From: a bacterium
GTDB lineage: Bacteria; Patescibacteriota; Minisyncoccia; Phycocordibacterales; Phycocordibacteraceae
Length of the DNA stretch: 64,000 nt
Direction: 5' to 3'
Assembly: GCA_023269085.1 (NCBI GenBank)
Contig: JAHFML010000002.1
Location: forward strand, 65,266-129,265
Under the pieces are notes generated by a model that worked only from the letters and a program-made list of their open reading frames with translations, searched no databases and was not told the origin of the DNA. Of the stretch, positions 3,024-63,321 are shown in pieces; positions within the stretch are counted from its first letter, which is position 1; every line of letters begins with the position of its first letter. A program made the translations under genes and the position numbers.

Positions 3024-3053
3024 GAGGTGAGTATAGCAGATTATTTCTTACAA

Positions 3054-3076: not shown

Positions 3077-4197
3077 TTCTTCTTCCCCGCGAAGGTGAGC
3101 GTCATGCGCTGATCCTTCGGCTCGAAGAGCGTGATGGTGAAGGGATACGTCCGGCCGAGCTCAAGCGTCTCGCGGAGCTCGACAGGCGAGGCGAATTCGC
3201 TCACGTGCACGAGACCTGCGACGCCCTCTTCTATCGAGGCGAGCGCGCCGTGCTTGTTGTACTTGATCACGACGCCCGGCACCTCCTTGCCCTTGCTGTA
3301 GCGGGCGGCGGCAGTGTGCCACGGATTCTCCTTGAGTGCTTTGACCGAGAGCGAGACCTTGCCCTCCTTGATCTCGATAATCTTTACGCGCAACTTGTCG
3401 CCAACCTTGACGAGCGCATGCGGATCTTCGACGAGACCCCAGTCGAGCTCGCTGATGTGTACGAGGCCTTCGAGCCCGGGCTCGAGCTTCACGAAGACGC
3501 CGAAGTCGACGATACCCGTCACCTCACCGGTCGCTGCATCGCCGATCTGATACTTGTCGATGAGCGACGCCTTTTCGCCCGTGTCGTCGCCCATACGCTC
3601 GGAGAAGATGAGCTTACTCTCCTTTGCGTCGGCAGTGATGATGCGCACCGAGAGCGGATGGCCGATGAGTTGCATGAGCTCGCCCAAAATCTTGTCCTTA
3701 TCGCCCTCGGGCACGCGCGGGTAATGTTCGCTCGCGAGCTGGGAGGCAGGGAGGAAGCCCTGTATGCCTTGCCAAGAGAGGATGAGGCCGCCCTTGTTGG
3801 CCTCTTCGACCATGAGCGAATACGGCGTCTGCGCGACGATAGCCTGCTCGGCCTCGCCCCAGAGTGCCGCTTGGCGCGCCTCCTTGAGCGAGAGCTCGAT
3901 ATAGCCGTCGCGACCCGCGGGGTCGACGACTTTCGCGCTTATCGTGTCGCCCGGGTTCGCCTTGCGGAGCACATCGGCGGCGTTCAGATATTCGCGGCCA
4001 TAGATGAGCCCAGAGCCAAAGGGTGGCAGGTCGACATACACGCGCCCGCGGCTGATAGCGATGATAGTACCCTCGACGAGATCGCCCTCCTTGGGCGGCA
4101 TCGGGATGGCGTCGAGCAGGTCGGCCATAGGGTGACCTTCTGCCAAGTGGATAGTGACGACTGGAGCCGCAACCTTCTTTTCCTTCTCTTCTGACAT
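3073..4197 (-). CDS. rpsA: 30S ribosomal protein S1 (short, 4 S1 domains)
   Basis: Repeated S1 domain signatures (GxV..I...GxFV.L..g..GLxHISE); 374 aa. Confidence 0.85.
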   Translation of the reverse strand: MSEEKEKKVAAPVVTIHLAEGHPMADLLDAIPMPPKEGDLVEGTIIAISRGRVYVDLPPFGSGLIYGREYLNAADVLRKANPGDTISAKVVDPAGRDGYIELSLKEARQAALWGEAEQAIVAQTPYSLMVEEANKGGLILSWQGIQGFLPASQLASEHYPRVPEGDKDKILGELMQLIGHPLSVRIITADAKESKLIFSERMGDDTGEKASLIDKYQIGDAATGEVTGIVDFGVFVKLEPGLEGLVHISELDWGLVEDPHALVKVGDKLRVKIIEIKEGKVSLSVKALKENPWHTAAARYSKGKEVPGVVIKYNKHGALASIEEGVAGLVHVSEFASPVELRETLELGRTYPFTITLFEPKDQRMTLTFAGKKK

Positions 4198-4234
4198 ATA
4201 TATAAGCGGCGCGGATTTTCCGAGGCGGTTCTGT

Positions 4235-4251
4235 CCAAGGTCGAACCTTGG
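4235..4251. repeat. REP family A palindrome CCAAGGTCGAACCTTGG (singlet)
   Basis: Seen directly in the intergenic region upstream of rpsA; same core as copies at 8059, 8473, 8979, 9175, 31258, 32574, 37918, 58067, 62193. Confidence 0.85.
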
Positions 4252-4550
4252 AATGCAGGGTTAGCCGACTCCTACTTCTTCGCACGCGATGAGGGGAGTG
4301 TAGCACAGAGCGTATAAAAGCTAAAGGACCTTCTTGACGAAGGTCCAGTCCTATAGAGCCGGTTGTTGGTCAGGTCGCCGCCGCGCCCAGGGTGGTCAGG
4401 CTGGCCATAGTCGGAGGCCCCGTGAGGCCGAAGCTAGAAGTGCGCATGTCGTTCTCCTTGAACGATTGAGGGCGGGTTTGCAGACGCGCCTACCAAACAA
4501 AAACAATCGGAAAGAGCGTCTGCAGGGACTATAGCAGAACGGGTGAGAAA

Positions 4551-8052: not shown

Positions 8053-8058
8053 TTTTGT

Positions 8059-8075
8059 CCAAGGTTCGACCTTGG
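8059..8075. repeat. REP family A palindrome CCAAGGTTCGACCTTGG (with conserved 5' flank TTTTGTCCAAGG)
   Basis: Seen directly, just after the gyrA stop. Confidence 0.85.
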
Positions 8076-8088
8076 AGTCGGGCGCATT

Positions 8089-8409: not shown

Positions 8410-8472
8410 TGTTGGTTTGACACCCGTTTTTATTCTGCGCGCACCTCTGGTGCGCGCGGTTTTCGTTTTTGT

Positions 8473-8489
8473 CCAAGGTTCGACCTTGG
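8473..8489. repeat. REP family A palindrome (same 24-nt TTTTGTCCAAGGTTCGACCTTGGA as copy at 8054)
   Basis: Seen directly, adjacent to RAYT gene end at 8491. Confidence 0.85.
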
Positions 8490-8490
8490 A

Positions 8491-9150
8491 TTAATCAGGG
8501 GCGTAGGTAAGCCACTCGGTGACGAGCTCTTTAAACTCCATGCCAGAATCGAAATATCCAGGCAAGGCATTGGCGGTGAGGATGATATTCTCGGCACGCG
8601 TCTCGCCGAGATAATCGCGATAGCTTGATGGCGCGTATTGCGCGAGATATCGTTCTGCGGCCGCGCGGTCTCTGATCCCCGTCTCTTTCCATTTCTGTTC
8701 GATAATCTTCACTGGGTTGAGATGAATATACGAAACGAGATAGCGCAAATAACGGTCATCCGCGACATGAGTTGCCTTGAACTTCCCTTGGAAGAGGGAG
8801 CCGTTCCGGTCGTTCTTCTTATTGAAATACATCGTATAACCGGTAGTGAGCTTCTGCATGAACTTGCTGATGCCGCCTTCTTGAAGCTCGCGCACGAGGA
8901 GATGGAAATGGTTTGGCATAAGGCAGTACGCAGCAATCTCGACGAGCGGTTCTCCTTCTCGTTTTCCCACCAACTCGTCCAAGGTTCGACCTTGGAGTTT
9001 TAGAACGACAGGAGTGCTTTGGTTCGCAAAATAGAGAAGAGCAAGGAAGCGACGGTAGTCACTTTTGTCTAAGAAGACTTTCCGTTTCTCGGTGCCGCGA
9101 TTGTAAATGTGGTAGTACTCTTCTGGCGCGAATGCGAATGTTCGTTGCAT
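8491..9150 (-). CDS. IS200/IS605-family Y1 transposase, RAYT-like (second paralog), carrying an in-frame REP-A copy
   Basis: YCLMPNHFHLLVRE HuH motif, GSLFQGKFKAT, LRYLVSYI; REP-A at 8979-8995 lies inside the ORF and encodes ...KLQGRTLDEL... Confidence 0.8.
   Translation of the reverse strand: MQRTFAFAPEEYYHIYNRGTEKRKVFLDKSDYRRFLALLYFANQSTPVVLKLQGRTLDELVGKREGEPLVEIAAYCLMPNHFHLLVRELQEGGISKFMQKLTTGYTMYFNKKNDRNGSLFQGKFKATHVADDRYLRYLVSYIHLNPVKIIEQKWKETGIRDRAAAERYLAQYAPSSYRDYLGETRAENIILTANALPGYFDSGMEFKELVTEWLTYAPD
8979..8995. repeat. REP family A palindrome inside RAYT coding sequence
   Basis: CCAAGGTTCGACCTTGG within ORF 8491..9150, frame preserved. Confidence 0.8.
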
Positions 9151-9174
9151 AACACTCGAAGTGTAGCATTATTT

Positions 9175-9191
9175 CCAAGGTCGAACCTTGG
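9175..9191. repeat. REP family A palindrome (opposite orientation, CCAAGGTCGAACCTTGG)
   Basis: Seen directly just upstream of the RAYT start. Confidence 0.85.
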
Positions 9192-9253
9192 AAAACTTGC
9201 GAGAGGTGTTGATTGCGCGCGACCGAAGGTCGCGCGCATGGTATTTTATACCC

Positions 9254-11527: not shown

Positions 11528-11797
11528 ATGACTTTCGCCCAATTCGTCGGAGATGGTTCGACCGGTGTTATAGGCATCTTCAATACGGTCGTCATCCCGC
11601 TCCTCTTCTCGCTCGTATTCCTCGTCTTCGTATGGGGCGTCGTGTCCTACTTCTTCATCCATGGCGACGAAGAGACGAAGCGCGGCGAAGGGCGCAAGTT
11701 CATGCTCTGGGGCGTTATCGGCGTCGCGGTGCTCCTCTCGACATGGGGCTTCGTCAATCTTATCCTGGCTACTCTCGGTCTCGCGCCTGGCGCGTAA
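11528..11797 (+). CDS. VirB2/TrbC-type pilin-like protein (paralog 2)
   Basis: VIPLLFSLVFLVFVWGVVSYFFIHGDEETKRGEGRKFMLWGVIGVAVLLSTWGFVNL; TGAtATG coupling to upstream gene; start at ATG 11528. Confidence 0.6.
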   Translation: MTFAQFVGDGSTGVIGIFNTVVIPLLFSLVFLVFVWGVVSYFFIHGDEETKRGEGRKFMLWGVIGVAVLLSTWGFVNLILATLGLAPGA

Positions 11798-11815
11798 TGC
11801 TATACTGAAAGTTAT

Positions 11816-12247
11816 ATGACACCTACTCTTCTCGCTCAAGCAACCAATGTCCCCGGACCGTATGTCCAGTCGGTTAATAGTCAAGTGAATTACGGCATTA
11901 GTAACGGCGTTGGGAGCTATGGAAGCGGTATCGGTTATATTCCAAATATAGGCTCCTACGGGAGCGGCATCACCGGTATCGCAGGGACTATCCTCTATCT
12001 CATCAACTCAGTGCTCGTACCGCTCATCTTCGCGGTCTCATTTATCGTATTCCTCTATGGCGTGGCGAGCACCTACATCTTCTCTCACGGCGAGCCGGCA
12101 GAGGTAGAGAAGGGGCATAAGGTTATCCTCTGGGGTCTCATCGGCTTCGTCGCGATGGTCTCGCTCTGGGGCTTGGTCAATGTCGTGGCGAATACCTTCG
12201 GCTTGAACGGCATGATCTCCCCCGGGCGTTTGCCGACATCTTATTAG
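11816..12247 (+). CDS. VirB2/TrbC-type pilin-like protein (paralog 3, Gly/Ser/Tyr-rich N-terminal region)
   Basis: LVPLIFAVSFIVFLYGVASTYIFSHGEPAEVEKGHKVILWGLIGFVAMVSLWGLVNVV. Confidence 0.6.
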   Translation: MTPTLLAQATNVPGPYVQSVNSQVNYGISNGVGSYGSGIGYIPNIGSYGSGITGIAGTILYLINSVLVPLIFAVSFIVFLYGVASTYIFSHGEPAEVEKGHKVILWGLIGFVAMVSLWGLVNVVANTFGLNGMISPGRLPTSY

Positions 12248-12264
12248 CATAATCAATTCTCCCT

Positions 12265-12567
12265 ATGCCCGGCTCCGTCAATGTCTCACTCGTCCAAGGA
12301 TACTCGAACAGCATCCTCACGGTCATCAATCAGAGTCTCGTGCCGGTGCTCTTCGCCATCGCCTTCATCATGTTCCTCTGGGGCGTGTACAAATATTTCA
12401 TCATCGGCGCGACTGAAGATAAGAAGCGCGAAGAAGGGAGACATTTCGTCCTTTGGAGCATCATCGGCTTCGCGGTTATTCTCTCGGTATGGGGACTCGT
12501 CGCCGTCGTGACGAGCACATTCAACTTGCCTGCCGGCGCTACGCCTCCTAGTTACCCGAAGCTCTAA
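12265..12567 (+). CDS. VirB2/TrbC-type pilin-like protein (paralog 4)
   Basis: LVPVLFAIAFIMFLWGVYKYFIIGATEDKKREEGRHFVLWSIIGFAVILSVWGLVAVV. Confidence 0.6.
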   Translation: MPGSVNVSLVQGYSNSILTVINQSLVPVLFAIAFIMFLWGVYKYFIIGATEDKKREEGRHFVLWSIIGFAVILSVWGLVAVVTSTFNLPAGATPPSYPKL

Positions 12568-12655
12568 CTATCCACCTATCCACACCCCTTCGCGAAGTGC
12601 GTTGACCCGGTGCTATGAAAAGGTACAATAACCTCATTACTCGTTCATCTATCTT

Positions 12656-13036
12656 ATGAAAAAAGCTCTTGCCATCACATCCGTCTCGCTTGCCACTCTC
12701 GCTCTACCGATTGTCTCTTCTGCCGCCACAACGATCACCGACCTGAACGGTGTCGGTAACTTCATCATCAATACTATCAATGGTCTTATCGTTCCTGTCC
12801 TCTTCGCGATTGCCTTCATCGTCTTCGTCTATGGCGCCTTCGAGACCTTCATCATCGGCGCGAACAAGGAGGAGGTGAAGGATAAAGGGAAAAACCTCAT
12901 GCTCTGGGGCCTCATCGGCTTCTTCGTCATGGTCTCGGTCTGGGGCCTCGTGAACATCCTCACGAGCACGGTCAGCTTCGGCAACAACGGCGGTATCAGC
13001 AATCCGCCCAAGGCCGGCGTGAATATCGGCAACTAA
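12656..13036 (+). CDS. VirB2/TrbC-type pilin-like protein (paralog 5, with cleavable signal peptide)
   Basis: Signal peptide MKKALAITSVSLATLALPIVSSAA; IVPVLFAIAFIVFVYGAFETFIIGANKEEVKDKGKNLMLWGLIGFFVMVSVWGLVNIL. Confidence 0.6.
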   Translation: MKKALAITSVSLATLALPIVSSAATTITDLNGVGNFIINTINGLIVPVLFAIAFIVFVYGAFETFIIGANKEEVKDKGKNLMLWGLIGFFVMVSVWGLVNILTSTVSFGNNGGISNPPKAGVNIGN

Positions 13037-13043
13037 CACAAGG

Positions 13044-13316
13044 ATGGCCGCTCTTAGCAAGTTCCTCGGCCTAGTCGTCGTGCAGATAATCAATCCGATT
13101 ATCCTCTTGCTCGCGGGCGCGGCGTTCGTCCTCTTCGTCTGGGGCGGCTTCCAATTCGTCCTCCATGCGGGCGACGACACGAAGCGGGCAGAGGGACGGC
13201 AAGCTATCCTCTGGGGCCTCGTCGGGCTCGTGATTATCTTCGGCGCCTATAGCATCATCAATCTCGCTCTGGGCGCGTTCAACATAGCGCCAATTCATAA
13301 GATATCGGGTTCATAA
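13044..13316 (+). CDS. VirB2/TrbC-type pilin-like protein (paralog 6, shortest)
   Basis: ILLLAGAAFVLFVWGGFQFVLHAGDDTKRAEGRQAILWGLVGLVIIFGAYSIINL. Confidence 0.55.
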   Translation: MAALSKFLGLVVVQIINPIILLLAGAAFVLFVWGGFQFVLHAGDDTKRAEGRQAILWGLVGLVIIFGAYSIINLALGAFNIAPIHKISGS

Positions 13317-18516: not shown

Positions 18517-19680
18517 ATGCCATGGCACAAGAAGCGCGTGTATCTCGATGTCGCCGCTGGGGTGGTGGGGAATTCGTCGTCGCCGCACGAGGAGGGCCGA
18601 GCCACGAAGGCAGTGCTTGAAGAGGCGCGACGTGATATCGCACGTCTCGTCGAGGTGCAGGCCGATGATGTCATCTTCACGAGTGGCGCGACGGAGAGTA
18701 ATGCAATCGCTATTCTCGGGATCCCGCGCGCGCTTCGCGCGCGCGGGGCGAGCAACATACACGCGCTCTACCTCTCGACCGCGCACGCCTCGATTGTCGA
18801 GAATATGAAAGTGCTCGAGAGTGAGGGTGTCGCTATTGAGGCGTTGCCTATTCGCGAGTCTCGCGTCGACACCGAGGCGCTTCGTGCGATGCTACGACCC
18901 GAGACGGTGCTGGTCGCGATGGAAGCCGTCTGCGGCGAGACGGGCGTGGTATGGAATACGCGTGCGGTTGCCGAGGTTCTTCAAAAGTACAAAATTGGAC
19001 ATGATATGTCCGATTTGGGTGGACACCTAGTGTCCACCCGTCTGCGGGTGTTTTTGCATGTCGACGCGAGTCAGGCGTCATTGACCGAGAAGATTTCGCG
19101 CGAGCACTTCGGCGCGGACACGCTCACGCTCGACGGCGCGAAGGTCGGGCCGCGTGGTATCGGCCTACTCGTCGCGCATCGGACGATACCGATGGCGCCA
19201 CTCTACGCGGGTGGCGGGCAGGAGCGGGGAGTGCGGCCGGGGAGCGAGGCGCCGGAGCTCGCGCGGGAGTTCGCGGCGGCGCTTCACGCCGCCACAGATG
19301 GTGCTCCTGCATTTCGCGCCGCCGCAGAGCGGCGGCGCGTCGAGCTTGTGACGAATCTCACCGCTATTCCAGGTTTGGTTATCAATGAGGGCCGTACGCA
19401 AGCGCCGAACATCCTCAACCTCTCGCTCCTCGGCCGCGATACGGATTATCTCGTCGCGCTTCTCGACGAGGCCGGCTTCGCGCTCGCGACGCGGAGCGCC
19501 TGTGAGACCGACAGCATGACCGGCTCGCGCGCGGTTGAGGCGCTCATGGGCGACGCCGCGCGCGCTCGCGCGACCCTACGCGTCTCGTGGGGGAGCGCGA
19601 CGCGTCCGCGCGACCTCACGGATTTTGCAAAGGCACTTTCGCGTGCGGTCGCATTCATTGACAGCGCCAACAAGAGGTAG
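18517..19680 (+). CDS. Cysteine desulfurase / class V aminotransferase (IscS/NifS-like) with in-frame palindrome insertions
   Basis: PLP fold-type I signatures (SGATESNAIA..., HVDASQA); two palindromes at 18997-19039 encode ...KIGHDMSDLGGHLVSTRL... in frame. Confidence 0.7.
   Translation: MPWHKKRVYLDVAAGVVGNSSSPHEEGRATKAVLEEARRDIARLVEVQADDVIFTSGATESNAIAILGIPRALRARGASNIHALYLSTAHASIVENMKVLESEGVAIEALPIRESRVDTEALRAMLRPETVLVAMEAVCGETGVVWNTRAVAEVLQKYKIGHDMSDLGGHLVSTRLRVFLHVDASQASLTEKISREHFGADTLTLDGAKVGPRGIGLLVAHRTIPMAPLYAGGGQERGVRPGSEAPELAREFAAALHAATDGAPAFRAAAERRRVELVTNLTAIPGLVINEGRTQAPNILNLSLLGRDTDYLVALLDEAGFALATRSACETDSMTGSRAVEALMGDAARARATLRVSWGSATRPRDLTDFAKALSRAVAFIDSANKR
18997..19011. repeat. 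Palindrome family C unit GGACATGATATGTCC
   Basis: Identical 15-mer at 61014-61028 (inside tgt). Confidence 0.8.
19017..19039. repeat. Palindrome family B unit GGGTGGACACCTAGTGTCCACCC
   Basis: Same core at 60303-60335 (tgt) and twice at 62541-62597 (uvrB). Confidence 0.85.
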
Positions 19681-24630: not shown

Positions 24631-25261
24631 ACGACTCAATCTGAAGGGCTATCTCGTCATCAGTGCGGTGATTGTTCTCACGGTTGGTGTTGGTGTCCTT
24701 GTCTTCGTTGGCGCGACGAGCAATACCTCAACGACAGTTCCCACCGCGACCGGATTGCCGGTGGCAGGGCAGACACAACCGACGACTTCAGGATCACATG
24801 CTCAATCGGTGGCTCAAGGCTCGTTCGCCCCTGCGGCGGGAGGACAGACACAATCGGTATTGACGCTCGTTTCGCGCGCTGGCGGCACGATTGTAACTAA
24901 AGATTTCTTGCACAATGGCGAGACGGTTGCGGACGTGGTAAATCCAGGAACGTATGTGCTCGCGGGGAGTCTCGGCTATTGCACCGCGAGCGGTGTGTGC
25001 GGCGCGAATGCGTCAACGACTGATTTTTCGATTTCCTATGCGACGAGTACGCAATTCTTCAACATTATCCTTCTCGCCGAGCCGGTCGGCCTTGTGCGTT
25101 CCGCCGCCGAACGTTTTTTCCTTGCGCGTCTCGGCATTGGCGAACAAGCCGCTTGTGCGCTGAACTATTTTGTCGGTACACCCTACTGGGTCAACGAGTC
25201 GTACGATAACAAAAACCTCGGCTTCAGCTTCTGCCACGGTGCGACGGCTCTGCCGAAATAA
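24617..25261 (+). CDS. Hypothetical membrane-anchored secreted protein
   Basis: TM LVISAVIVLTVGVGVLVFV then Thr/Gly-rich and Cys-containing domain; start moved to ATG 24617. Confidence 0.4.
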   Translation: MPENKRLNLKGYLVISAVIVLTVGVGVLVFVGATSNTSTTVPTATGLPVAGQTQPTTSGSHAQSVAQGSFAPAAGGQTQSVLTLVSRAGGTIVTKDFLHNGETVADVVNPGTYVLAGSLGYCTASGVCGANASTTDFSISYATSTQFFNIILLAEPVGLVRSAAERFFLARLGIGEQAACALNYFVGTPYWVNESYDNKNLGFSFCHGATALPK

Positions 25262-26186
25262 ACTTGGACATCGGATGTCCAAGTTTGCGCAACCACGCCT
25301 TCTGGCGGCGAGCGTAGTGCCAGAGTCGGGCCGAGAGAATTGGGAGAAGGGAAGCTTCGTCGCGCTCATTGCGGAGGTACCCGCCAATGATGCGATACTC
25401 GAGCCCGAGCTCGGCGAGCCGCGCGTCGCCGACCTGCTCGCGGACGCGAGCGACCTCGTCGATAAGGCCGCGATCGAGCGCGCTCGCGAGCCGTGCGTCG
25501 ATGCGCGCGCGGAGCTCTTCTCGCGGCGGATCAATCACGATCCACTTCGAGCGATAGCGAGATCCCGAGTCTGTCGAGGGACGATTGCGGCGCGGGACAG
25601 AGCCAAGCGCGTCGATTATCTCGAGAGCGCGGATGAGTCGACGACGGTTGAGCGGGTCGAGCTCGGCGGCGCGACGTGCGTCGGCACGCTGCACCCGCGC
25701 ATACAGCTCTTCGGTCGGGAGCTGTTCGAGCTCGGCGCGAAGGCTCGGATTCGCGTCGACGCTGGCGGGGAGCCCGTGCAGAAGCGCATCAAAATAAAAA
25801 TGCGTCCCGCCCGCGAGGATCGGCAATTTGCCGCGGCTCGTTATCTCTTTGATAAGTCGCGTCGCGTCCTGCACGAAGTCGCCCGCAGAATAGGCATCGC
25901 TCGCGTCACGAATGTCGATAAGGTGGTGTTGCACCCCCTGCATCTCTTCGAGCGTAATCTTCTCGGTGCCGATATCGAGGCCGCGATATACCTGCCGCGA
26001 GTCGACCGAGATTATCTCGCCACCTCGCGCGAGCGCCTCCTGCACCGCGCGCGATGACTTGCCTGAAGCGGTCGGGCCCGCTATGCAGAGGATCCGTTCG
26101 CCAGCAGACTGGCTCAGGACGTCGCTTCGCTCCGTTTGTGCTGTCATTGGGGGCGATGGTATCATATATTGCATACGATTACTCAT
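25224..26186 (-). CDS. miaA: tRNA dimethylallyltransferase
   Basis: P-loop GPTASGKS, DSRQVYRGLDIGT, GGTHFYF; C-terminal tail carries a palindrome. Confidence 0.85.
   Translation of the reverse strand: MSNRMQYMIPSPPMTAQTERSDVLSQSAGERILCIAGPTASGKSSRAVQEALARGGEIISVDSRQVYRGLDIGTEKITLEEMQGVQHHLIDIRDASDAYSAGDFVQDATRLIKEITSRGKLPILAGGTHFYFDALLHGLPASVDANPSLRAELEQLPTEELYARVQRADARRAAELDPLNRRRLIRALEIIDALGSVPRRNRPSTDSGSRYRSKWIVIDPPREELRARIDARLASALDRGLIDEVARVREQVGDARLAELGLEYRIIGGYLRNERDEASLLPILSARLWHYARRQKAWLRKLGHPMSKFISAEPSHRGRS
25260..25286. repeat. Palindrome family C-related 27-nt perfect palindrome AAACTTGGACATCGGATGTCCAAGTTT
   Basis: Sits exactly at convergent gene ends: overlaps TAA of 24617..25261 and the last codons of miaA (encodes ...LGHPMSKF...). 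Confidence 0.8.
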
Positions 26187-30779: not shown

Positions 30780-33206
30780 TTATTTCAAATATTCAGCCGC
30801 TTCAGCGGGAGTGAACGAAGTGGGCGAGACAGACTCGGGGAGATAGATGCGACGGAGACCTTTCTTCAAAAAGAGACCCTGCTTTGATTTGTAGAGCACG
30901 ATAGTCTTGCCGGTCTTGGGGTGCTTACCGATCTCTTGTACGATCTCGACGCCGCGCGGCGGCTGCTTCGGCGCGGCAAGGAGCGCGAGCGCCGTGTCGA
31001 GCGTGACCGTGTAGGGGTCGCCGATCGCGGGCTTGAGCGAGCGGAATTCGCCATCGCTCCCGACGTAGGGGCCGAAGCGGCCGGTCGAAGCGAAAACGGT
31101 TTTGCCGGTGCTTGGGTGCATCCCGAGCTCGCGCGGGAGCGAGAGATAGTGGAGCGCGTCGGCGAGGGTCACCTGCGAGAGGTCGGTGCCGGCGGGGATG
31201 CTCGCGCGCTTGGCGGCAACCTTCGGGCGACCCTTTGCGCGCTTCTTCGGTTTCTTCGATTCAAGGTTCGACCTTGAATCCGAATCCTTAAGGTCGGACC
31301 TTGGTTCGGGTTCGGGCAACGCCATCTCGACATATGGCCCGAAGCGACCCGTCTTGATATAAATAGGCGCGCCAGTCGTCGGGTCATTGCCAATGGGCTC
31401 GTCACCTTTGAGCTCGACGCCCTCTTCGGTGCGCGCACCGAGACAGTCGGGATACTTCTTACAGCTCATGAAGATGCCGCCGCGACCGAGCTTCAGCTCC
31501 ATCGGGCTCCCGCAGAGAGGGCAAGTGAATTCGGGCGACACTTCGCCGAGCGAGGTCGCCTTCGGGAGCTTATCTTTTTCCTTCACCTGTCTCTCAAAGG
31601 GGCCGTAAAATTCGGAGAGCGTCTCCTTGTAGCCGCGCTCGCCGCGCGCGATCTCGTCGAGCTCGTCCTCCATCGTTGCGGTGAAGGAGTCGCTGATGTA
31701 GGTCGCGAAGTTTTCTTCGAGCCAGCCCGAGACGACCATACCGGTCGCCGTCGGCTTCAAGGTGCGGCCGGTCTTCTCGACGTATTCGCGGTCCGAGAGC
31801 GTCTTCATCGTTGAGGCATAGGTCGAGGGGCGGCCGATGCCGCGCTTCTCGAGCTCCTTGATGAGGCCGGCCTCGGTGTAGCGGTTCGGCGGTTCGGTCT
31901 GCTTCTCCTCCTCGCCGAGCGAGAGGAGCGTGAGCGGGTCGCCCTTCGCCACGCGGGGTAATTCGACATCCTCACCCTTCGCTTTCGTGTCGAGTGCGAG
32001 CCAGCCCGGGAAGAGTGTCCGCGAGCCGGTCGCCGCGAAGAGCGGAATGTCGGCATCGGCCTTCGCCGAAATATTCGTTCGCATGATTTTCGCGCTTGCC
32101 ATCTGCGAGGCGAGCGTGCGAACACGGATGAGCTCGTAGAGCGCGTGTTCGTCGGGCGTCGCGCCGGCATGTCCGCATGCGGCATCGGTGGGGCGGATTG
32201 CTTCGTGCGCCTCCTGCGCGTTCTTGCTCGTCGTCTTGTAGGCGCGCGTCTGGGCATACTCTTTACCGAATTCTTGCTCGATGACCGTTATCATTTTCGC
32301 GACGGCTTCGGCACCGAGATTGACCGAGTCGGTGCGCATGTAGGTGATGTGGCCGGCTTCATAGAGCTTCTGTGCGGCCCGCATCGCGCGCGAGGGCGCG
32401 AAGCCGAGACGCGTCGACGCGACCTGTTGGAGCGTCGAGGTGGTGAAGGGCGGACGCGGGGATCGCTCCTCCGCCTTTTCTATAATGTCAGCGACCTGCC
32501 AAGCGGCGGCGCGACCGAGCCTCACGATGCGCCCTGCTTCTTCGCGCGTCGCGGGCTCCTCGACGCAGGTAGTCATCAAGGTCGAACCTTGAACTTCAAG
32601 GTTCGACCTTGATGACGAGAAGGAGGCACGGAGGACGAAATAGGTGACGGGCACGAACGCTTTGATCTCGCGCTCGCGTTCGGCGAGGATCCGGAGCGCG
32701 GGCGATTGCACGCGGCCGGCCGAGAGCCCGTAACGAACTTTCTTCCAGATGAGTCCCGAGAGATCATAGCCGACGATGCGGTCGAGCACGCGCCGCGCCT
32801 CTTGCGCCTGCCGCAAATCTTCGTCGATAGTGCGCGGGTGGGCAAGCGCCTCTTCGATAGCGGCCTTGGTAATCTCGTGGAAGGCGACGCGCTTGGGCTT
32901 CTTCAGCTTCGCCACCTCCTTGATATGCCAGGCGATAGCTTCGCCCTCGCGGTCGGGGTCGGTCGCGAGATACACCTCGTCGGCCTTGGCGGCTGCGGCC
33001 CGTATCTTCTCGATGATCTCCTGCTTCTCGGGCGGGATGATGTAGTGCGGCACGAAGCCGCCCTCGATATCGACCGCATCGATATTGCTCTTGGGCAAAT
33101 CGCGCACATGCCCGACCGAGGCCAAGACCGTGTAGCCTTTCCCGAGGTAGGTGCCGATAGTGCGCGCCTTGGTGGGCGACTCAACGATGAGAAGACGGTT
33201 CGTCAT
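30780..33206 (-). CDS. topA: DNA topoisomerase I, carrying two in-frame REP-A doublet insertions
   Basis: Toprim N-terminus MTNRLLIVESPTKARTI, catalytic domain, C-terminal zinc ribbons (CPLCGSPM...); insertions encode ...SSSRSNLEVQGSTLMTT... and ...RSDLKDSDSRSNLES... Confidence 0.9.
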   Translation of the reverse strand: MTNRLLIVESPTKARTIGTYLGKGYTVLASVGHVRDLPKSNIDAVDIEGGFVPHYIIPPEKQEIIEKIRAAAAKADEVYLATDPDREGEAIAWHIKEVAKLKKPKRVAFHEITKAAIEEALAHPRTIDEDLRQAQEARRVLDRIVGYDLSGLIWKKVRYGLSAGRVQSPALRILAEREREIKAFVPVTYFVLRASFSSSRSNLEVQGSTLMTTCVEEPATREEAGRIVRLGRAAAWQVADIIEKAEERSPRPPFTTSTLQQVASTRLGFAPSRAMRAAQKLYEAGHITYMRTDSVNLGAEAVAKMITVIEQEFGKEYAQTRAYKTTSKNAQEAHEAIRPTDAACGHAGATPDEHALYELIRVRTLASQMASAKIMRTNISAKADADIPLFAATGSRTLFPGWLALDTKAKGEDVELPRVAKGDPLTLLSLGEEEKQTEPPNRYTEAGLIKELEKRGIGRPSTYASTMKTLSDREYVEKTGRTLKPTATGMVVSGWLEENFATYISDSFTATMEDELDEIARGERGYKETLSEFYGPFERQVKEKDKLPKATSLGEVSPEFTCPLCGSPMELKLGRGGIFMSCKKYPDCLGARTEEGVELKGDEPIGNDPTTGAPIYIKTGRFGPYVEMALPEPEPRSDLKDSDSRSNLESKKPKKRAKGRPKVAAKRASIPAGTDLSQVTLADALHYLSLPRELGMHPSTGKTVFASTGRFGPYVGSDGEFRSLKPAIGDPYTVTLDTALALLAAPKQPPRGVEIVQEIGKHPKTGKTIVLYKSKQGLFLKKGLRRIYLPESVSPTSFTPAEAAEYLK
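31258..31304. repeat. REP family A doublet inside topA (GATTCAAGGTTCGACCTTGAATC ... AAGGTCGGACCTTGG)
   Basis: Two inverted REP units ~10 bp apart; reading frame of topA preserved. Confidence 0.85.
32574..32614. repeat. REP family A doublet inside topA: 41-nt perfect palindrome CATCAAGGTCGAACCTTGAAcTTCAAGGTTCGACCTTGATG
   Basis: Seen directly; frame preserved. Confidence 0.9.
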
Positions 33207-37160: not shown

Positions 37161-38186
37161 ATGTCATTCTGGCAGAAACTCCCGAAACCTTTTTTCGTCA
37201 TGGCGCCGATGGCAGATGTCACCGATGCCGCCTTCCGCGCGCTTATCGCGAGCCGCGCTGCGCCCGACGTTTTCTGGACCGAGTTCGTCTCGGCCGACGG
37301 GCTCTATCACACCCGCGAGATCGCACGGATGCCGGACAATGAGAACCCACTCATGCGCGACCTTTTGAAGAGCAGTGCGGAGCGGCCGATAGTCGCGCAG
37401 ATATTTTCAAACAAGCCGGAGATGATCGCGTATGCGACGCGCGTGGTTGCTGACCTTGGCTTCGACGGCGTCGATCTCAACATGGGCTGCCCTGATAGAG
37501 CGATAGAGCGGCAGGGGAGCGGTGCCGCGATGCTGAAGTCGCCGGAGGTAGCCCGCGCGGTAATCCGCGCGGCGAAGGGTGCGAGTAGCTTGCCCGTCAC
37601 GGTCAAGACGCGTGTCGGGTATAATCGCGAATCGCTCGATGAGTGGCTGCCCGTCTTGCTCGAAGAAGCGCCGGCCGCTATCACGCTGCACCTGCGCACA
37701 CGCAAAGAGTTGTCGCTCGTACCCGCGCAGTGGGAGCTCATGAAGAGGGCGGTCGCTCTTCGCGATAGCCTCAATCCTGACGTACTCCTTATCGGTAACG
37801 GCGATGTGACGAGTGTTGAGCAGGGTAAGCGGCTTGTCGATGAGACCGGTTGCGATGGCGTCATGATCGGCCGCGGCATGTTCGGCAATCCGTGGGTCTT
37901 TGAGGGATTGACGCGCACACCAAGGTCGGACCTTCGGTCCGAATTCTCAAGGTCCGACCTTGGTGTGCGCGAACATGGGCTCTCCGAAAAGCTCGAAGCT
38001 TTAGTTGAGCTCGCGCATAACTTCGAGAAGCTCTTGCCGCCCAAAAATTTCTCCATACTCAAGAAGCACATCAAAGCCTTTGCCACGGGCTTCGACGGCG
38101 CTGCCGATCTCCGCGCGCGCCTTATGCTCGCCGACTCTGCTACTGAGCTCGAAGGGATTGTTGCAGAATACGTAGATGGAGCGTAA
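37161..38186 (+). CDS. tRNA-dihydrouridine synthase (DusB-like) with an in-frame REP-A doublet insertion
   Basis: FFVMAPMADVTDAAFR, LNMGCP, TIM-barrel FMN motifs; insertion encodes ...LTRTPRSDLRSEFSRSDLGVRE... Confidence 0.85.
   Translation: MSFWQKLPKPFFVMAPMADVTDAAFRALIASRAAPDVFWTEFVSADGLYHTREIARMPDNENPLMRDLLKSSAERPIVAQIFSNKPEMIAYATRVVADLGFDGVDLNMGCPDRAIERQGSGAAMLKSPEVARAVIRAAKGASSLPVTVKTRVGYNRESLDEWLPVLLEEAPAAITLHLRTRKELSLVPAQWELMKRAVALRDSLNPDVLLIGNGDVTSVEQGKRLVDETGCDGVMIGRGMFGNPWVFEGLTRTPRSDLRSEFSRSDLGVREHGLSEKLEALVELAHNFEKLLPPKNFSILKKHIKAFATGFDGAADLRARLMLADSATELEGIVAEYVDGA
37918..37965. repeat. REP family A doublet inside dus gene: 48-nt hairpin CACCAAGGTCGGACCTT-cggtccgaattctc-AAGGTCCGACCTTGGTG
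   Basis: Seen directly; loop contains GAATTC as in the uvrB copy. Confidence 0.9.
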
Positions 38187-49765: not shown

Positions 49766-50101
49766 ATGAAATTACTTTTCAAATGGTTCATCGCGACGGT
49801 CGCTATCGGCATCGCCGCCCACATCGTCCCGGGCGTCAGCGTTACGCCGACCAGCGCTCTGATCGCGGCCGTCGTCCTTGGCGCGCTCAATCTCTTCATC
49901 CGACCGATTCTCCTCATTCTCACGCTTCCGATTACCATCATCACGCTCGGACTCTTTTCGCTTGTCGTGAACGCGCTTCTTGTCCTCCTTGTCGCGCTCG
50001 TCGTGCCGGGCTTCTCGGTCGCGGGGTTCTGGCCTGCGCTCCTCTTCGCGTTCGTCCTCGCTCTCGTCAATTGGGTCTTCCACTTCTGGACGCATAGTTA
50101 G
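49766..50101 (+). CDS. Phage-holin-family-4-like (DUF360) small membrane protein
   Basis: FIATVAIGIAAHIVPGVSV...LGALNLFIRPILLILTLPITIITLGLFSLVVNALLVLLVALVVPGF matches the 4-TM holin/DUF360 pattern; start ATG 49766. Confidence 0.6.
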   Translation: MKLLFKWFIATVAIGIAAHIVPGVSVTPTSALIAAVVLGALNLFIRPILLILTLPITIITLGLFSLVVNALLVLLVALVVPGFSVAGFWPALLFAFVLALVNWVFHFWTHS

Positions 50102-50118
50102 GACATCCAGTGTCCTAA
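50098..50118. repeat. Palindrome TTAGGACA-tccag-TGTCCTAA (family C-related GGACA/TGTCC core)
   Basis: Seen directly, overlapping the holin-like stop codon. Confidence 0.7.
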
Positions 50119-57554: not shown

Positions 57555-58070
57555 ATGAATCCGATCCAGACTGGTATCGCTACCGCCCTCGCGCTCGTCG
57601 TTGTCGCCGTTTTCTTCTTCTTCCCGAGCTTGCTCCCCTTTGGCCAATCGGCACCGACAGAGCCAGCACAGGTGAGCGTCGCCGCTACCACTAATCAACA
57701 ACTAGCTTCAACCACTATGCCAACAGAAAATGTTACCGATCTCCAGATAACCGACGAGACCATCGGCACTGGCGCCGTCGCCGCCGCGGGCGACACCGTT
57801 ACGGTCAACTATGTCGGTGCGCTCACGAACGGTACCGTCTTTGACGCTTCGGCGAATCACGGCTCGACCGGCTTCACCTTCCCGCTTGGGGCAGGGCAGG
57901 TTATCAAGGGTTGGGACATGGGCGTCGCAGGGATGAAGGAGGGTGGCAAGCGCAAGCTCGTCATCCCGGCCTCGCTTGCCTATGGCGACCGCGCGGTAGG
58001 GAATGTCATCCCGGCAAGTGCGACGCTCATCTTCGAGGTCGAGCTCGTGAAGGTGCAGAAAGGGAAGTAA
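57555..58070 (+). CDS. FKBP-type peptidyl-prolyl cis-trans isomerase (membrane-anchored/secreted)
   Basis: GDTVTVNYVGALTNGTVFDAS...FTFPLGAGQVIKGWDMGVAGMKEGGKRKLVIPASLAYG FKBP signature. Confidence 0.9.
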   Translation: MNPIQTGIATALALVVVAVFFFFPSLLPFGQSAPTEPAQVSVAATTNQQLASTTMPTENVTDLQITDETIGTGAVAAAGDTVTVNYVGALTNGTVFDASANHGSTGFTFPLGAGQVIKGWDMGVAGMKEGGKRKLVIPASLAYGDRAVGNVIPASATLIFEVELVKVQKGK

Positions 58071-58119
58071 CCAAGGTTCGACCTTAAGAAATTTGGGCCA
58101 AAGGTCGAACCTTGGTTAC
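58067..58119. repeat. REP family A doublet forming a 19-bp-stem hairpin GTAACCAAGGTTCGACCTT-loop-AAGGTCGAACCTTGGTTAC
   Basis: Starts inside the FKBP stop codon; a second GC hairpin terminator follows. Confidence 0.9.
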
Positions 58120-59922: not shown

Positions 59923-61214
59923 GCGCGATGAAATTTGAGATAGAGAAGCGCGCGGCCGGCTCTACCGGCCGCGCGGGGCTCATCACGACGCCGCACGGCG
60001 TCATCCGTACGCCTGCCTTCTCGCCGGTCGGGACCAAGGCGAGTGTGAAGGGCATCTTCCCGAGTCAGCTGAAGGCGCTCGGTGCCGAAGTCGTCCTCGC
60101 GAACACCTATCATCTCTATCTCCAGCCCGGCGAGAAGGTGGTCGAGCAGGCGGGCGGCCTCGCGAAGTTCATGGGCTGGGAGGGCTCGTCCCGCGGATCT
60201 TCAGCGGGATGGGGGCCGACCATCACCGACTCGGGCGGCTTCCAAGTCTTCTCGCTCGGCGCGGCCTTTGGTAAAACTATTTCCAAATTCACTCGCGAGG
60301 ATCCCGTGGGTGGACACCTAGTGTCCACCCACGGGCTGGCGCATTTCGATCCTGATGTGGCGAGTCAGCACGGTCAGCTCGCTATCATCGACGACGAGGG
60401 CGTCACCTTCACCTCACACCTCGACGGCTCCTTGCATCGCTTCACGCCCGAGCGCTCGGTCGAGATCCAGCACGCGCTCGGCGCAGACATCTTCTTCGCT
60501 TTCGACGAGTGTACTTCGCCCTCTGAGCCCTATGAATATCAGCGCGAAGCGATGGAGCGCACGCACCGCTGGGCCGAGCGCAGCTTGCAGGCGCATCGGC
60601 AAAATCTTGCGGCAAGAGAGAAACAAGCGCTCTTCGGCATCGTGCAGGGCGGCCGGCACGAAGACTTGCGGCGCGAGTCGGCGCGCGCTATCGCCGCCAT
60701 GGGCTTCGACGGCATCGGTATCGGCGGGTCATTCAGTAAAGAGGACATGCGCGGCGCCCTTGGCGCCGCGGTGGGCGAGCTCCCCGAAGAGCTCCCGCGT
60801 CACTTCCTCGGTATCGGCGAGCCGGGCGATATTCTCGAGGGCATTGCGGGCGGGATGGACCTCTTCGACTGCGTCGCCGCAACGCGCATCGGCCGCCACG
60901 GCTCGATCTATACCCGTCGCGGCATCATCCACCTGACCGGCGAGCGATACAAAGACGACTTCTCGCTGCTCGATCCCGAAATGTCGGACATATCATGTCC
61001 AACATCTGATGTTGGACATGATATGTCCGACATTTTCACGCGCGCGTATGTCGCGCACCTCATCCGCTCTAAAGAGATGCTCGGCTCGACGATCTGCTCG
61101 ATGCACAATCTCGGCTTCATCCTCAACCTCGTCGCGGGAGCGCGCCAAGCTATCCTCGACGGTCGCTTCGATTCCTACCGCGCCGACTTCGTGCGAGACT
61201 ATTACCATGGCTAA
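59919..61214 (+). CDS. tgt: Queuine tRNA-ribosyltransferase with two in-frame palindrome insertions
   Basis: VLANTYHLYLQPGE, FAFDEC (catalytic Asp), zinc site near FDCVAATRIGRHG; insertions encode ...EDPVGGHLVSTHGLAHF... and ...EMSDISCPTSDVGHDMSDIF... Confidence 0.9.
   Translation: MSAMKFEIEKRAAGSTGRAGLITTPHGVIRTPAFSPVGTKASVKGIFPSQLKALGAEVVLANTYHLYLQPGEKVVEQAGGLAKFMGWEGSSRGSSAGWGPTITDSGGFQVFSLGAAFGKTISKFTREDPVGGHLVSTHGLAHFDPDVASQHGQLAIIDDEGVTFTSHLDGSLHRFTPERSVEIQHALGADIFFAFDECTSPSEPYEYQREAMERTHRWAERSLQAHRQNLAAREKQALFGIVQGGRHEDLRRESARAIAAMGFDGIGIGGSFSKEDMRGALGAAVGELPEELPRHFLGIGEPGDILEGIAGGMDLFDCVAATRIGRHGSIYTRRGIIHLTGERYKDDFSLLDPEMSDISCPTSDVGHDMSDIFTRAYVAHLIRSKEMLGSTICSMHNLGFILNLVAGARQAILDGRFDSYRADFVRDYYHG
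60303..60335. repeat. Palindrome family B: 33-nt CCCGTGGGTGGACACCTAGTGTCCACCCACGGG inside tgt
   Basis: Seen directly; frame preserved. Confidence 0.9.
60979..61035. repeat. Palindrome family C: 57-nt perfect palindrome (AAATGTCGGACATATCATGTCCAACATC t GATGTTGGACATGATATGTCCGACATTT) inside tgt
   Basis: Checked base by base: left arm is the exact reverse complement of the right arm; contains the GGACATGATATGTCC unit shared with 18997-19011. Confidence 0.9.
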
Positions 61215-63321
61215 CTTCAAACTCCACACTCCCTACCAGCCGGCAGGCGACCAGCCGGCGGCTATCGCGGCGCTCGAGAGCGGACTCGAGGCGGGCATGC
61301 GCCATCAGACGCTCTTTGGCGTGACGGGCTCGGGCAAGACCTTCACCATCGCGAACGTCATCGCAGCGCATGACAAGCCGACCCTCGTCCTCGCACACAA
61401 CAAGACCCTCGCGGCCCAGCTCGCGCAAGAGTATCGCGAATTCTTTCCCGAGAACGCCGTCCACTATTTTGTCTCTTACTACGACTACTATCAGCCCGAG
61501 GCCTATATCGCGCACTCCGACACCTACATCGAGAAGGAAGCAATGATAAACGCCGAGATTGATCGCCTCCGCCACGCGGCAACGCAAGCGCTTCTCACGC
61601 GCAAGGACGTCATCATCGTCGCGTCGGTCTCGGCGATCTACGGGCTTGGCTCGCCGGCAGAATATGAGAAGGTGCACGTGAAGATTGAGAAGGGCGCCGC
61701 GGAGGATCGCGCGGCGCTGATCCGCAAGCTCGTGGGTATCCACTTCGAACGCACGCCTGCCGACTTGAACCCTGGTCAGGTGCGCGCTATCGGGAACTCG
61801 CTCGAGCTGATGCCGGTCAACGAGCGCGTTATCTATCGCGTCGCTTTCGAGGGCGACACGATTGTGCGCATTGATCAGCTCGACCCGATCTCGCGCGCAC
61901 TTGTCGCGTCGCCCTCGTCTATTTTCATATTTCCCGCGAAGCACTTCATCACGAGCGAAGCAGAGCGGGTACGCGCGATCGAGGACATCAAGCTCGAACT
62001 CGATGGGCAATTGGCGAAGTTCAAGAGGGAAGCGAAGCCGCTTGAAGCCGAACGCTTGAAACGCCGCACCTTGAGCGACCTCGCGCTCATCCGCGAGATG
62101 GGTTATACCAACGGTATCGAAAATTATTCGCGCCACTTCGACGGTCGCAAGAGCGGCGAGCCGCCCTTCACGCTTCTTTCATACTTCCCACACCGGAATC
62201 AAGGTCGAACCTTACATACGAATTCTCAAGGTTCGACCTTGATTCCGGATTTCCTTACCATCATCGACGAGTCTCACGTGACGGTCCCGCAGCTCGGCGG
62301 CATGTACGCGGGCGATCGCTCACGCAAGGACGTGCTCGTCGAATACGGCTTCAGGCTCCCTTCGGCGCGCGACAATCGGCCGCTCAACTTCGAAGAGTTC
62401 GAAGAGCGTGTTGGGCAGGTTATCTATACGAGCGCAACGCCGGGCCCCTATGAGCGCGCACATGCTGAGCAGGTAGTCGAGCAAGTCATCCGCCCGACGG
62501 GCCTCATCGACCCGGAGCTCGTCATCCGCCCGGTGTCTGGGGAGGCGGGTGGACACCTAGTGTCCACCCATTTAGACACTAGGTGTCCACCCGCCTCCTA
62601 TCGCGGGCAGGTGGCGAACTTTATCAGTGAAGCCGAGGTCGTCATCAAGCGCGGCGGCCGCGCGCTCGCAACCACGCTCACCAAGCAGATGGCCGAAGAC
62701 CTCTCCTCATTCTTGCGCGAGAAAGGTATAAAAGCCGAGTATCTCCACTCTGACGTGAAGACGATCGACCGCATCGACATCCTCACCAAGTTCCGCAAGG
62801 GCGAGTTCGATATTCTCGTCGGCGTCAACCTGCTTCGCGAAGGACTCGACTTGCCCGAGGTCGAGCTCGTCGGCATCCTCGACGCGGACAAAGAAGGCTT
62901 CTTGCGCAGTGAGACCTCGCTCATCCAGACTATCGGCCGTGCCGCGCGCAACGTGCTCGGCCGCGTGATTCTCTATGCCGACGTGATGACCAAGTCGCTC
63001 GAGAAGGCTATTGGCGAGACCAATCGCCGCCGCGCGCTCCAAGTGGCCTACAACGAGAAGCACAGCATCACGCCGAAGACGATTCACAAAGAGATTCGCG
63101 ACATCGCTGCGAGCATGCGGAGCGACCACCAGAAGACGATTGACGAACTTCTGGTGCTCGACACGCTCGCGTACAAGGATGATCCGAAGGCTTTTGTCGC
63201 GCGTAAGCGAGAGGAGATGGCCGAAGCGGTCGAGAAGCTCGACTTCGAAACCGCCGCGCTTATTCGCGACGAGCTCTTCAAGCTTGAGGACGGCGGGTCG
63301 AAAGGGAAGAAGAAACGGTAA
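61207..63321 (+). CDS. uvrB: Excinuclease ABC subunit B with two in-frame palindrome insertions
   Basis: Walker A GVTGSGKTFT, helicase motifs, C-terminal UvrB/UvrC-interaction helix (LIRDELFKLE); start moved to ATG 61207; insertions encode ...HRNQGRTLHTNSQGSTLIPD... and ...GEAGGHLVSTHLDTRCPPASYRG... Confidence 0.9.
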   Translation: MANFKLHTPYQPAGDQPAAIAALESGLEAGMRHQTLFGVTGSGKTFTIANVIAAHDKPTLVLAHNKTLAAQLAQEYREFFPENAVHYFVSYYDYYQPEAYIAHSDTYIEKEAMINAEIDRLRHAATQALLTRKDVIIVASVSAIYGLGSPAEYEKVHVKIEKGAAEDRAALIRKLVGIHFERTPADLNPGQVRAIGNSLELMPVNERVIYRVAFEGDTIVRIDQLDPISRALVASPSSIFIFPAKHFITSEAERVRAIEDIKLELDGQLAKFKREAKPLEAERLKRRTLSDLALIREMGYTNGIENYSRHFDGRKSGEPPFTLLSYFPHRNQGRTLHTNSQGSTLIPDFLTIIDESHVTVPQLGGMYAGDRSRKDVLVEYGFRLPSARDNRPLNFEEFEERVGQVIYTSATPGPYERAHAEQVVEQVIRPTGLIDPELVIRPVSGEAGGHLVSTHLDTRCPPASYRGQVANFISEAEVVIKRGGRALATTLTKQMAEDLSSFLREKGIKAEYLHSDVKTIDRIDILTKFRKGEFDILVGVNLLREGLDLPEVELVGILDADKEGFLRSETSLIQTIGRAARNVLGRVILYADVMTKSLEKAIGETNRRRALQVAYNEKHSITPKTIHKEIRDIAASMRSDHQKTIDELLVLDTLAYKDDPKAFVARKREEMAEAVEKLDFETAALIRDELFKLEDGGSKGKKKR
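62193..62248. repeat. REP family A doublet inside uvrB: 21-bp-stem hairpin CCGGAATCAAGGTCGAACCTT-acatacgaattctc-AAGGTTCGACCTTGATTCCGG
   Basis: Seen directly. Confidence 0.9.
62541..62597. repeat. Palindrome family B composite (two GGTGGACAC/GTGTCCACC units, outer arms GGAGGCGGG/CCCGCCTCC) inside uvrB
   Basis: GGAGGCGGGTGGACACCTAGTGTCCACCCatttaGACACTAGGTGTCCACCCGCCTCC. Confidence 0.85.

Follow-up and report, generated by a model that had tools for sequence, protein, structure and literature searches.

The 64,000-nt stretch of contig JAHFML010000002.1 analysed here (the window) contains a gene for a type IA DNA topoisomerase I (topA; 30780..33206, minus strand), of which the open reading frame (ORF; 808 amino acids, aa) hosts two palindromic elements of a repeat family designated REP-A (REP, repetitive extragenic palindrome). 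The topA product contains the Pfam domains Toprim, Topoisom_bac, Zn_ribbon_Top1, and Toprim_C_rpt, is a 100% match to a database protein, and shares approximately 80% identity with TopA of Paceibacterota/Kaiserbacteria. Judged by its sequence, the host organism is a metagenome-assembled genome of the Patescibacteria (Paceibacterota/Kaiserbacteria-like), which we take to be an ultra-small, groundwater-type bacterium.

Both elements consist of two inverted hairpins (doublets) and are present as described in an initial annotation of the window: both are palindromic, the frame stays open through both of them, and the two peptides quoted are indeed encoded. The doublet at site 1 (32572..32616) is a perfect palindrome with 22-nt arms around one central base. 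Its hairpins, AAGGTCGAACCTT and AAGGTTCGACCTT, have their cores at 32578-32590 and 32598-32610; it encodes SSSRSNLEVQGSTLMT (aa 197-212) and has a predicted RNA folding energy of -37.4 kcal/mol (z -8.3). The doublet at site 2 (31258..31304) is composed of a hairpin with a 10-bp stem (31258-31280) and a second core (31290-31302), encodes PRSDLKDSDSRSNLES (aa 635-650), and folds more weakly (-22.4 kcal/mol, z -3.0). In an AlphaFold2 model of TopA, built from 65 sequences and of moderate quality (mean predicted local distance difference test score, pLDDT, of 71.9), the site 1 segment forms the tip between the antiparallel strands 188-198 and 209-214, with a pLDDT below 50 at residues 201-204, and site 2 is located in a Lys-rich linker that is disordered over residues 633-661 (pLDDT below 50). 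When TopA is aligned to the structures of the E. coli and M. smegmatis proteins, the first site falls in domain D2, and the second in the stretch that separates the zinc ribbon from the C-terminal repeats. Both segments are extra relative to most orthologues and, according to the model, lie at surface-type positions, as had been anticipated, namely the tip of a beta-hairpin and a disordered linker, where additions should be tolerated. The tryptic peptide SNLEVQGSTLMTTCVEEPATR of TopA is predicted to cross an insert junction.

L001, an assembly obtained independently from a different sample, matches the window at 100% identity across site 1. This identity extends over approximately 11 kb and falls abruptly to approximately 75% in the middle of topA, at about position 32400, which reflects either a recombination breakpoint or a chimeric assembly. 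Because of this mosaic structure, the differing linker of L001 does not represent an empty site, and L001 was rejected as an empty allele for site 2.

The topA doublets belong to a family of which the hairpin unit, AAGGT-NNN-ACCTT (13 nt), occurs in 15 copies within the window. Its 15-nt core, CAAGGTTCGACCTTG, has 16 matches in the window at two mismatches or fewer, versus 0.12 expected, and none of 100 shuffled sequences contained as many. Ten of the hairpins are paired as five inverted doublets with spacers of 7-15 nt, and the other five are single hairpins with an 8-bp stem (TCCAAGGT/ACCTTGGA; unit TCCAAGGT-TCG-ACCTTGGA). In three of the five singles, the preceding bases are GTCC, and the flanks of the doublets are variable. 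Four of the five doublets are predicted to fold at the RNA level into a single long hairpin of -32 to about -50 kcal/mol (z -6 to -10). A search of Rfam yielded no match over the REP-A elements. Four of the five doublets and one of the five singles lie inside ORFs, and the frames of all hosts remain open across the element, i.e. topA (twice), a tRNA-dihydrouridine synthase gene (dus), uvrB, and the transposase gene described below; hence, topA is not a special host. The sole intergenic doublet (58067..58119) is found just past the stop codon of an FKBP gene (57555-58070).

Four of the five single hairpins are located at or near an ORF (8491..9150, minus strand; 219 aa) that encodes a Y1/HUH tyrosine transposase of the REP-associated tyrosine transposase (RAYT) type, with the HUH motif NHFHLLV, the Tyr motif SYIHLNPVK, and a match to Pfam Y1_Tnp (PF01797; E 1.3e-10). 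A search of the PDB with the transposase gave no match at the default E-value; at E-values up to 10, the sole match was TnpA-REP of E. coli (4er8; E 0.28), the alignment spanning both the HUH motif (NHFHLL versus EHMHCI) and the Tyr motif (SYIHLNPVK versus DYIYINPVK). One hairpin lies 22 nt 5' of the RAYT start codon (9172..9194), another directly 3' of the stop codon (8472..8490; +1 nt), and a third is in frame within the RAYT ORF itself (8978..8996; LQGRTLD, aa 52-58). The fourth (8058..8076) is found approximately 400 nt further downstream, 6 nt past the stop codon of gyrA. The remaining single (4234..4252) is situated between two minus-strand genes, upstream of a gene for an S1-domain protein. 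In line with the initial annotation, the REP-A core does flank this RAYT-type gene. However, the 17-nt core said to be shared with topA has to be shortened, as only the 15-mer is common to the topA copies; the exact 17-mer CCAAGGTTCGACCTTGG is limited to the five singles (starting at 4235, 8059, 8473, 8979, and 9175). Transposase homologues of 32-56% identity are present on about ten REP-A-bearing metagenome contigs among the matches listed, and those of contigs L165, L138, and L200 are likewise flanked by REP-A hairpins. As the singles flank a RAYT-type gene, the doublets look like REPINs, the mobile REP doublets discussed below. In addition, L165 carries an in-frame hairpin at the same position within its RAYT gene (SLKGGTLQ, at about 4008, versus KLQGRTLD in the window), the two proteins being 45% identical; a REP-A copy within the RAYT ORF may either be ancestral or serve as a site of self-recognition.

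Comparison with orthologues revealed that the two TopA segments are absent from most relatives. A first set of 120 aligned orthologues (77-85% identity), of which 118 were counted for site states, was supplemented with a second set of 80 orthologues taken from species representatives of GTDB, with identities as low as 53%. At site 1, most members of the first set possess a short loop, F-KSKxGDIxT-TC, where the window reads F-SSSRSNLEVQGSTLMT-TC; 93 of the 118 sites are empty, 11 contain a recognisable REP-A doublet, four a decayed doublet, and ten another insert. At site 2, REP-A is recognisable in 17 and the site is empty in 98 of the 118 orthologues. The element is read in one constant frame per site (RSNL..QGSTL at site 1; RSDL..RS[DN]L at site 2). 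In the second set, REP-A occurs at site 1 in L004 and L037 only, each with one broken stem, indicating that copies decay in some lineages, and all distant orthologues have the short loop. The claim that the extra residues are absent elsewhere is in line with these counts, none of the distant orthologues having them. Closely related proteins can differ in this respect: TopA sequences that are 97% identical outside both sites are filled at both (P0003) or empty at both (P0005, P0006, and P0007), and P0009 and P0012 show opposite states. A neighbour-joining tree of 119 TopA sequences also displays a patchy distribution of the element; this tree was rejected for counting gains, as it is weakly resolved and includes chimeric contigs. 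The pattern of presence and absence is compatible with both repeated gain and precise loss and cannot tell them apart.

In other lineages, the site 1 loop contains palindromes of three further families, as checked at the DNA level, namely AACTTGGAAGTCGAACTTCCA / ..TGGAAGTTCGACTTCCAAGTT in L202, TCCGCC-AAA-GGCGGA / TCCGCC-TCT-GGCGGA in L203, and GGACATCCGATGTCC / GGACATCGGATGTCC in L204. With four palindrome families at one TopA loop, colonisation must have taken place independently at least four times. The window itself also contains hairpins (25260-25286 and 50098-50118) of the GGACAT..ATGTCC type, which fills site 1 in P0078/L204.

Two further conserved genes of the window contain an in-frame REP-A doublet, both on the plus strand. 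In dus (37161-38186), the doublet (37912..37971) has 23-nt arms, encodes TRTPRSDLRSEFSRSDLGVRE, and has an RNA folding energy of -50.5 kcal/mol. The Dus protein is 17 aa longer than orthologues of 57-75% identity, which read GNPWVFAG-RKPEDTP-LAEKL; an alignment with T. maritima Dus had suggested the absence of a net insertion, which is ruled out by these close orthologues. In uvrB (61204-63321), the doublet (62194..62247; -37.5 kcal/mol) is a self-contained unit of 54 nt, consisting of CGGAATC, a hairpin, 14 nt, a second hairpin, and GATTCCG. It is inserted in frame between YFPH and DFLTIIDESH, directly before helicase motif II (DESH), and a tryptic peptide spanning GRTLHTNSQGSTLIPDFL is predicted to cross a junction. 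Alignment with Bacillus UvrB (PDB 3uwx) shows a clean gap of 18 aa at this position (YFP(D) to DFLIIVDESH), and the UvrB of candidate phyla radiation (CPR) contig L185 reads YFPK-DFLMVIDESH, without the insert.

Contigs from JGI metagenomes were scanned for the REP-A doublet, which retrieved at least 120 stretches. Together with the window, these contain at least 138 distinct doublets, with spacers of 6-26 nt (modes of 14, 11, and 15 nt); one metagenome subfamily ends in ..ATAC/GTAC. When a doublet was considered intragenic if an open frame runs across the element and extends at least 40 codons beyond it on either side, 65 of the 132 metagenome doublets among the matches listed lie in long ORFs, and all 20 host ORFs tested among them are well-known housekeeping genes. 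These hosts comprise proteins of repair, replication, and chromosome maintenance (UvrA, UvrC, PolA, LigA, TopA, SMC, and FtsK), of translation, transcription, and tRNA metabolism (LeuRS, two CysRS, EF-G, LepA, TypA, IF-2, NusA, TsaD, and MnmA), and others (a P-type ATPase, a PMT-family mannosyltransferase, and a glycosyltransferase). All three element frames are used across the hosts (QGxTL, RSNL/RFDL, and KVEP), so that no particular peptide seems to be under selection. Where at least 80 codons are open on either side of a doublet on one strand, the frame is continuous in 49 and broken in at most 12 of the matches listed; most of the latter resemble normal junctions between genes, and in several of them the stop codon of the upstream gene falls within the first hairpin, as at an ordinary gene end. 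These numbers are consistent with selection for an intact frame, as the initial annotation had proposed. Core length modulo 3 (remainders 1/0/2 for 40/17/14 intragenic and 33/9/25 other doublets among the matches listed) was discarded as uninformative, since the exact ends of the inserted sequence would be needed for it, and was replaced by this frame count. Some host genes carry the element at a fixed position: in LeuRS, a REP-A doublet occurs at the same place in L158, L191, L151, and L181 (FLEKVW[RK]L-QGRTL..QGSTL-MHQTIKKV), and LepA (L090, L136, and L091) and TypA (L102 and L085) have doublets at fixed positions as well. This suggests that these positions may be further hot spots like the TopA loop.

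Taken together, it is likely that REP-A is a selfish REP/REPIN family, probably moved by the RAYT, and that its in-frame copies are kept at permissive loops and translated as passengers. The inverted doublet of 40-60 nt would be the mobile unit, moved in trans by the RAYT on single-stranded DNA. As the genome is tightly packed and offers little intergenic space, most landing sites would lie within genes. Purifying selection would then remove copies that break the frame, add a stop codon, or land in a structured core, and the survivors would be those in frame, without a stop codon, and at loops or linkers that tolerate residues, in topA the tip of the D2 beta-hairpin and the linker before the C-terminal repeats. 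Such survivors would most likely be translated as passenger loops of 13-18 residues and be nearly neutral for the host.

Several observations weigh against this explanation. At site 1, the REP-derived sequence amounts to approximately 13 codons, but the gene gains a net seven (short variant) or eight codons (long variant) only, because about five ancestral loop codons (DGDIx) are missing in every filled allele. Hence, site 1 is not a simple insertion, and the original statement that each doublet adds a short peptide has to be qualified in this respect; site 2 being a linker that is highly variable in length and sequence across orthologues, the net length of its insert cannot be given. In addition, the closest filled/empty pair, P0003 and P0006, is 88% identical in topA DNA, which indicates differences between species rather than within one population, and a clean filled-versus-empty pair at near-identical DNA was not found among the TopA relatives compared. 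The best NCBIfam match of the transposase is REP_Tyr_transpos, with 50.5 bits versus a cut-off of 80, and neither a GTAG nor a CGTC tag was seen beside the REP-A hairpins of the window and the listed metagenome doublets. No transposition event was observed, and translation of the insert peptides is deduced from open frames. Finally, the perfection of the window copies and the high stability of their hairpins (-37 to about -50 kcal/mol) could reflect recent activity, gene conversion, or selection on structure.

The arms of several doublets run 6-10 nt past the conserved cores and are copy-specific yet mutually complementary, as in TopA site 1 (GTCATC / GATGAC), Dus (CGCGCACACC / GGTGTGCGCG), and UvrB (CCGGAATC / GATTCCGG). 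The orthologous TopA element of P0003 has other flanks, CGCCTTC / GAAGGCG, that are again complementary. Extensions of at least 5 nt are present in 18 of the 69 intragenic doublets, versus 0.07 expected, and 35 of the 69 lack flank complementarity; the extensions include arms conserved within subfamilies (..AATAC, GATGTC). The idea that every doublet bears an inverted copy of its target flank was rejected, in view of the doublets without complementarity, the subfamily arms, and the self-contained UvrB unit. The copy-specific arms may represent either REPIN variants with differing arms or extension in place by intrastrand template switching.

The latter possibility leads to a different view of the family, in which doublets spread or grow by replication errors (template switching or gene conversion) and overwrite host sequence, without RAYT transposition. 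The smaller net gain and the loss of the same ancestral codons in all filled site 1 alleles of TopA would fit such a process, as would the replacement of one palindrome family by another in the same loop and the copy-specific arms of which one side resembles host codons (Dus CGCACACC versus the orthologue CGCAAGCC). It is nevertheless unlikely, given that the insert of UvrB, self-contained and 54 nt in length, sits cleanly between two conserved codons, that the RAYT gene is flanked by the same REP here and at other loci, and that flank extensions are lacking in half of the intragenic doublets. Somewhat more remote is a function of the palindromes as nucleic acid, either in mRNA stability or translation speed or as DNA sites for gyrase or topoisomerase. 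A perfect duplex of 21-23 bp would be a substrate for RNase III, the hairpins are perfect and very stable, their flanks pair even where they differ in sequence, as in P0003, and copies lie in topA, directly after gyrA, and in uvrB; REPs of E. coli have been reported as such DNA sites, and binding of gyrase to REPs is cited in PMC3733652. Such a function is difficult to reconcile with the patchy distribution among close relatives, the decayed stems in L004 and L037, the very diverse hosts (aminoacyl-tRNA synthetases, GTPases, SMC, and a glycosyltransferase), and the half of the intragenic doublets without complementary flanks.

Adaptation at the protein level, with the inserted peptides acting as modules selected for their amino acid sequence, for instance new interaction loops, is very improbable. 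The constant frame at both TopA sites and the symmetric coding, which yields a beta-hairpin-like extension in the AlphaFold2 model, could be read in this sense, but the use of all three frames across hosts, the presence of four unrelated palindrome families in one TopA loop, the lack of an insert in most orthologues, and a conservation that resides in the DNA (the exact 15-nt core) and not in the peptide speak against it. That the palindromes are assembly or sequencing artefacts, the true gene lacking them or being broken, is hardly credible. Palindromes can cause misassembly, and the abrupt switch of L001 from 100% to approximately 75% identity lies inside topA; however, homologous in-frame elements are seen in dozens of assemblies that are unrelated and stem from different projects and assemblers, and an artefact is excluded for practical purposes because the assembly of the independent sample is identical across site 1 and same-family in-frame elements occupy both TopA sites elsewhere. 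Selfish spread of REP-A with the help of the RAYT thus is the explanation preferred here.

This explanation may be extended, tentatively and as a real possibility rather than an expectation, to a situation in which in-frame palindromes are pervasive in Paceibacteria-type proteomes, as a trait not described to date and not confined to a single gene, and several unrelated REP families colonise a few loops of essential proteins and replace each other there. The families concerned might include REP-A, GGGTGGACAC.., GGACAT..ATGTCC, TCCGCC..GGCGGA, and GGAAGTCGAACTTCC, and the loops those in TopA, UvrB, tRNA-guanine transglycosylase (TGT), LeuRS, and LepA. Turnover would take place between lineages with 97% identical proteins, a REP hairpin would be kept at a fixed position within the RAYT gene, and palindromes might extend into neighbouring host codons through intrastrand template switching, thereby rewriting amino acids. 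Different palindrome families share positions not only in TopA but also at two TGT sites and at the second insert site of UvrB.

A second palindrome family of the window, GGGTGGACACCTAGTGTCCACCC, is found in frame in a class-V aminotransferase gene (19017-19039; LGGHLVSTR) and in the gene for TGT (60303-60335; PVGGHLVSTHG). Its uvrB copy (62541-62598; GEAGGHLVSTHLDTRCPPAS) is a doublet with arms of 24 nt, a segment missing from solved UvrB structures and from the UvrB of L185; the UvrB of L173 contains a REP-A-like element at this place. In addition, the TGT gene carries a perfect palindrome of 57 nt with 28-nt arms (60979-61035), in frame and encoding EMSDISCPTSDVGHDMSDIF, at the position where the TGT of Zymomonas has the CxCxxC zinc motif. 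Several close TGT orthologues possess other palindromes, of the 'PTSDVG' type, at that site. Destruction of the zinc motif by the palindrome was considered and rejected, as the whole clade is devoid of the motif.

REP-A resembles several known systems. Palindromic elements of Rickettsia (Rickettsia palindromic elements, RPEs), reportedly treated by Ogata et al. in 2000 and 2002, mostly are longer (approximately 100-150 bp for RPE-1), and we know of no cognate transposase for them. As with RPEs, REP-A palindromes occur in frame in essential genes of a small genome and in surface segments away from the catalytic core, and both are apparently tolerated because of that location. REP-A differs from this description in being 40-60 nt in length and adjoining a RAYT. 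In-frame palindromes in essential genes were first described for Rickettsia, as cited in PMC3733652. The initial annotation added that they are rarely reported elsewhere, which is too strong, since intragenic REP dimers are present in Opitutus, Thauera, Thioalkalivibrio, and others (PMC3733652). Indeed, a survey of GTAG- and CGTC-tagged REPs (Di Nocera et al. 2013; PMC3733652) recorded REPs within genes of several species, both as singles and as dimers, those in known genes encoding 20-30 aa in frame; many of the hosts are replication and repair genes (uvrA, uvrB, dnaE, ligase, and recBCD), and some genes are hit twice. The present hosts are similar, with topA (twice) and uvrB (twice) in the window and uvrA, uvrC, polA, and ligA in relatives. 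The phenomenon therefore is already known in kind, of the same character as these cases down to the host genes. The differences are that REP-A occurs in another phylum, has another repeat sequence that lacks the defining tag, and has a high intragenic share, that several palindrome families recur at the same loops, and that a copy lies within the RAYT gene itself.

With the REP/REPIN-RAYT systems (Nunvar et al. 2010, PMC2817692; Bertels and Rainey 2011, PMC3116915 and PMC3337134), REP-A has in common the short repeated hairpin, the pairing of inverted units across a short spacer, and a Y1/HUH gene bracketed by the repeat. The layout of the doublets matches the definition of a REPIN in PMC3337134, a pair of inverted REPs separated by a short spacer; RAYTs are presumed to mobilise such units. 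Unlike in these systems, in which the repeats are mainly extragenic, four of the five REP-A doublets in the window and about half of the listed metagenome doublets are intragenic; the units are short, at 40-60 nt, neither of the tags GTAG and CGTC was seen, the RAYT is a distant one (below the NCBIfam cut-off), and the host belongs to the Patescibacteria. MITEs (miniature transposable elements with inverted repeats) that extend or modify ORFs in frame are also known, for instance the QMITEs of Coxiella (PMC5896051; reviewed in PMC10969869). REP-A is comparable to MITEs as a small non-autonomous repeat with this ability, but MITEs have terminal inverted repeats derived from insertion sequences and a target-site duplication, neither of which is shown by REP-A; no target-site duplication was found at the UvrB, Dus, and TopA junctions in comparison with empty orthologues. 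In the literature searched, of which the coverage is incomplete, no report of RAYT, REPIN, or in-frame palindromes in Patescibacteria/CPR was found. The extent of the phenomenon in CPR genomes and its hot-spot behaviour would merit systematic study.

The recurrent hot spots and the REP within the RAYT gene offer concrete test cases for the target choice of RAYTs, which is still unsettled. Patescibacteria have tiny, gene-dense genomes that are usually described as streamlined. The tolerance of selfish palindromes in genes for a topoisomerase, excision repair proteins, translation factors, and tRNA synthetases would indicate where such genomes still absorb mobile DNA. The inserts may mark structurally permissive loops of essential proteins and explain part of the odd length variation among CPR orthologues. 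Practical caution is warranted when these lineages are annotated, aligned, or used in phylogenomics, as inserts of one DNA origin occur in non-homologous positions and in unrelated proteins.

Two other repeat structures were noticed in the window. A third palindrome family, AAGTATCGAAGTCTGACTTCGATACTT, is present in three copies (1650-1676, 2408-2438, and 3052-3079), all in short gaps between consecutive genes. Furthermore, the region 11684-13231 contains four to five diverged direct repeats of approximately 98 nt, spaced 307-451 nt apart, which resemble a tandem array of small paralogous genes with a common conserved hydrophobic segment.

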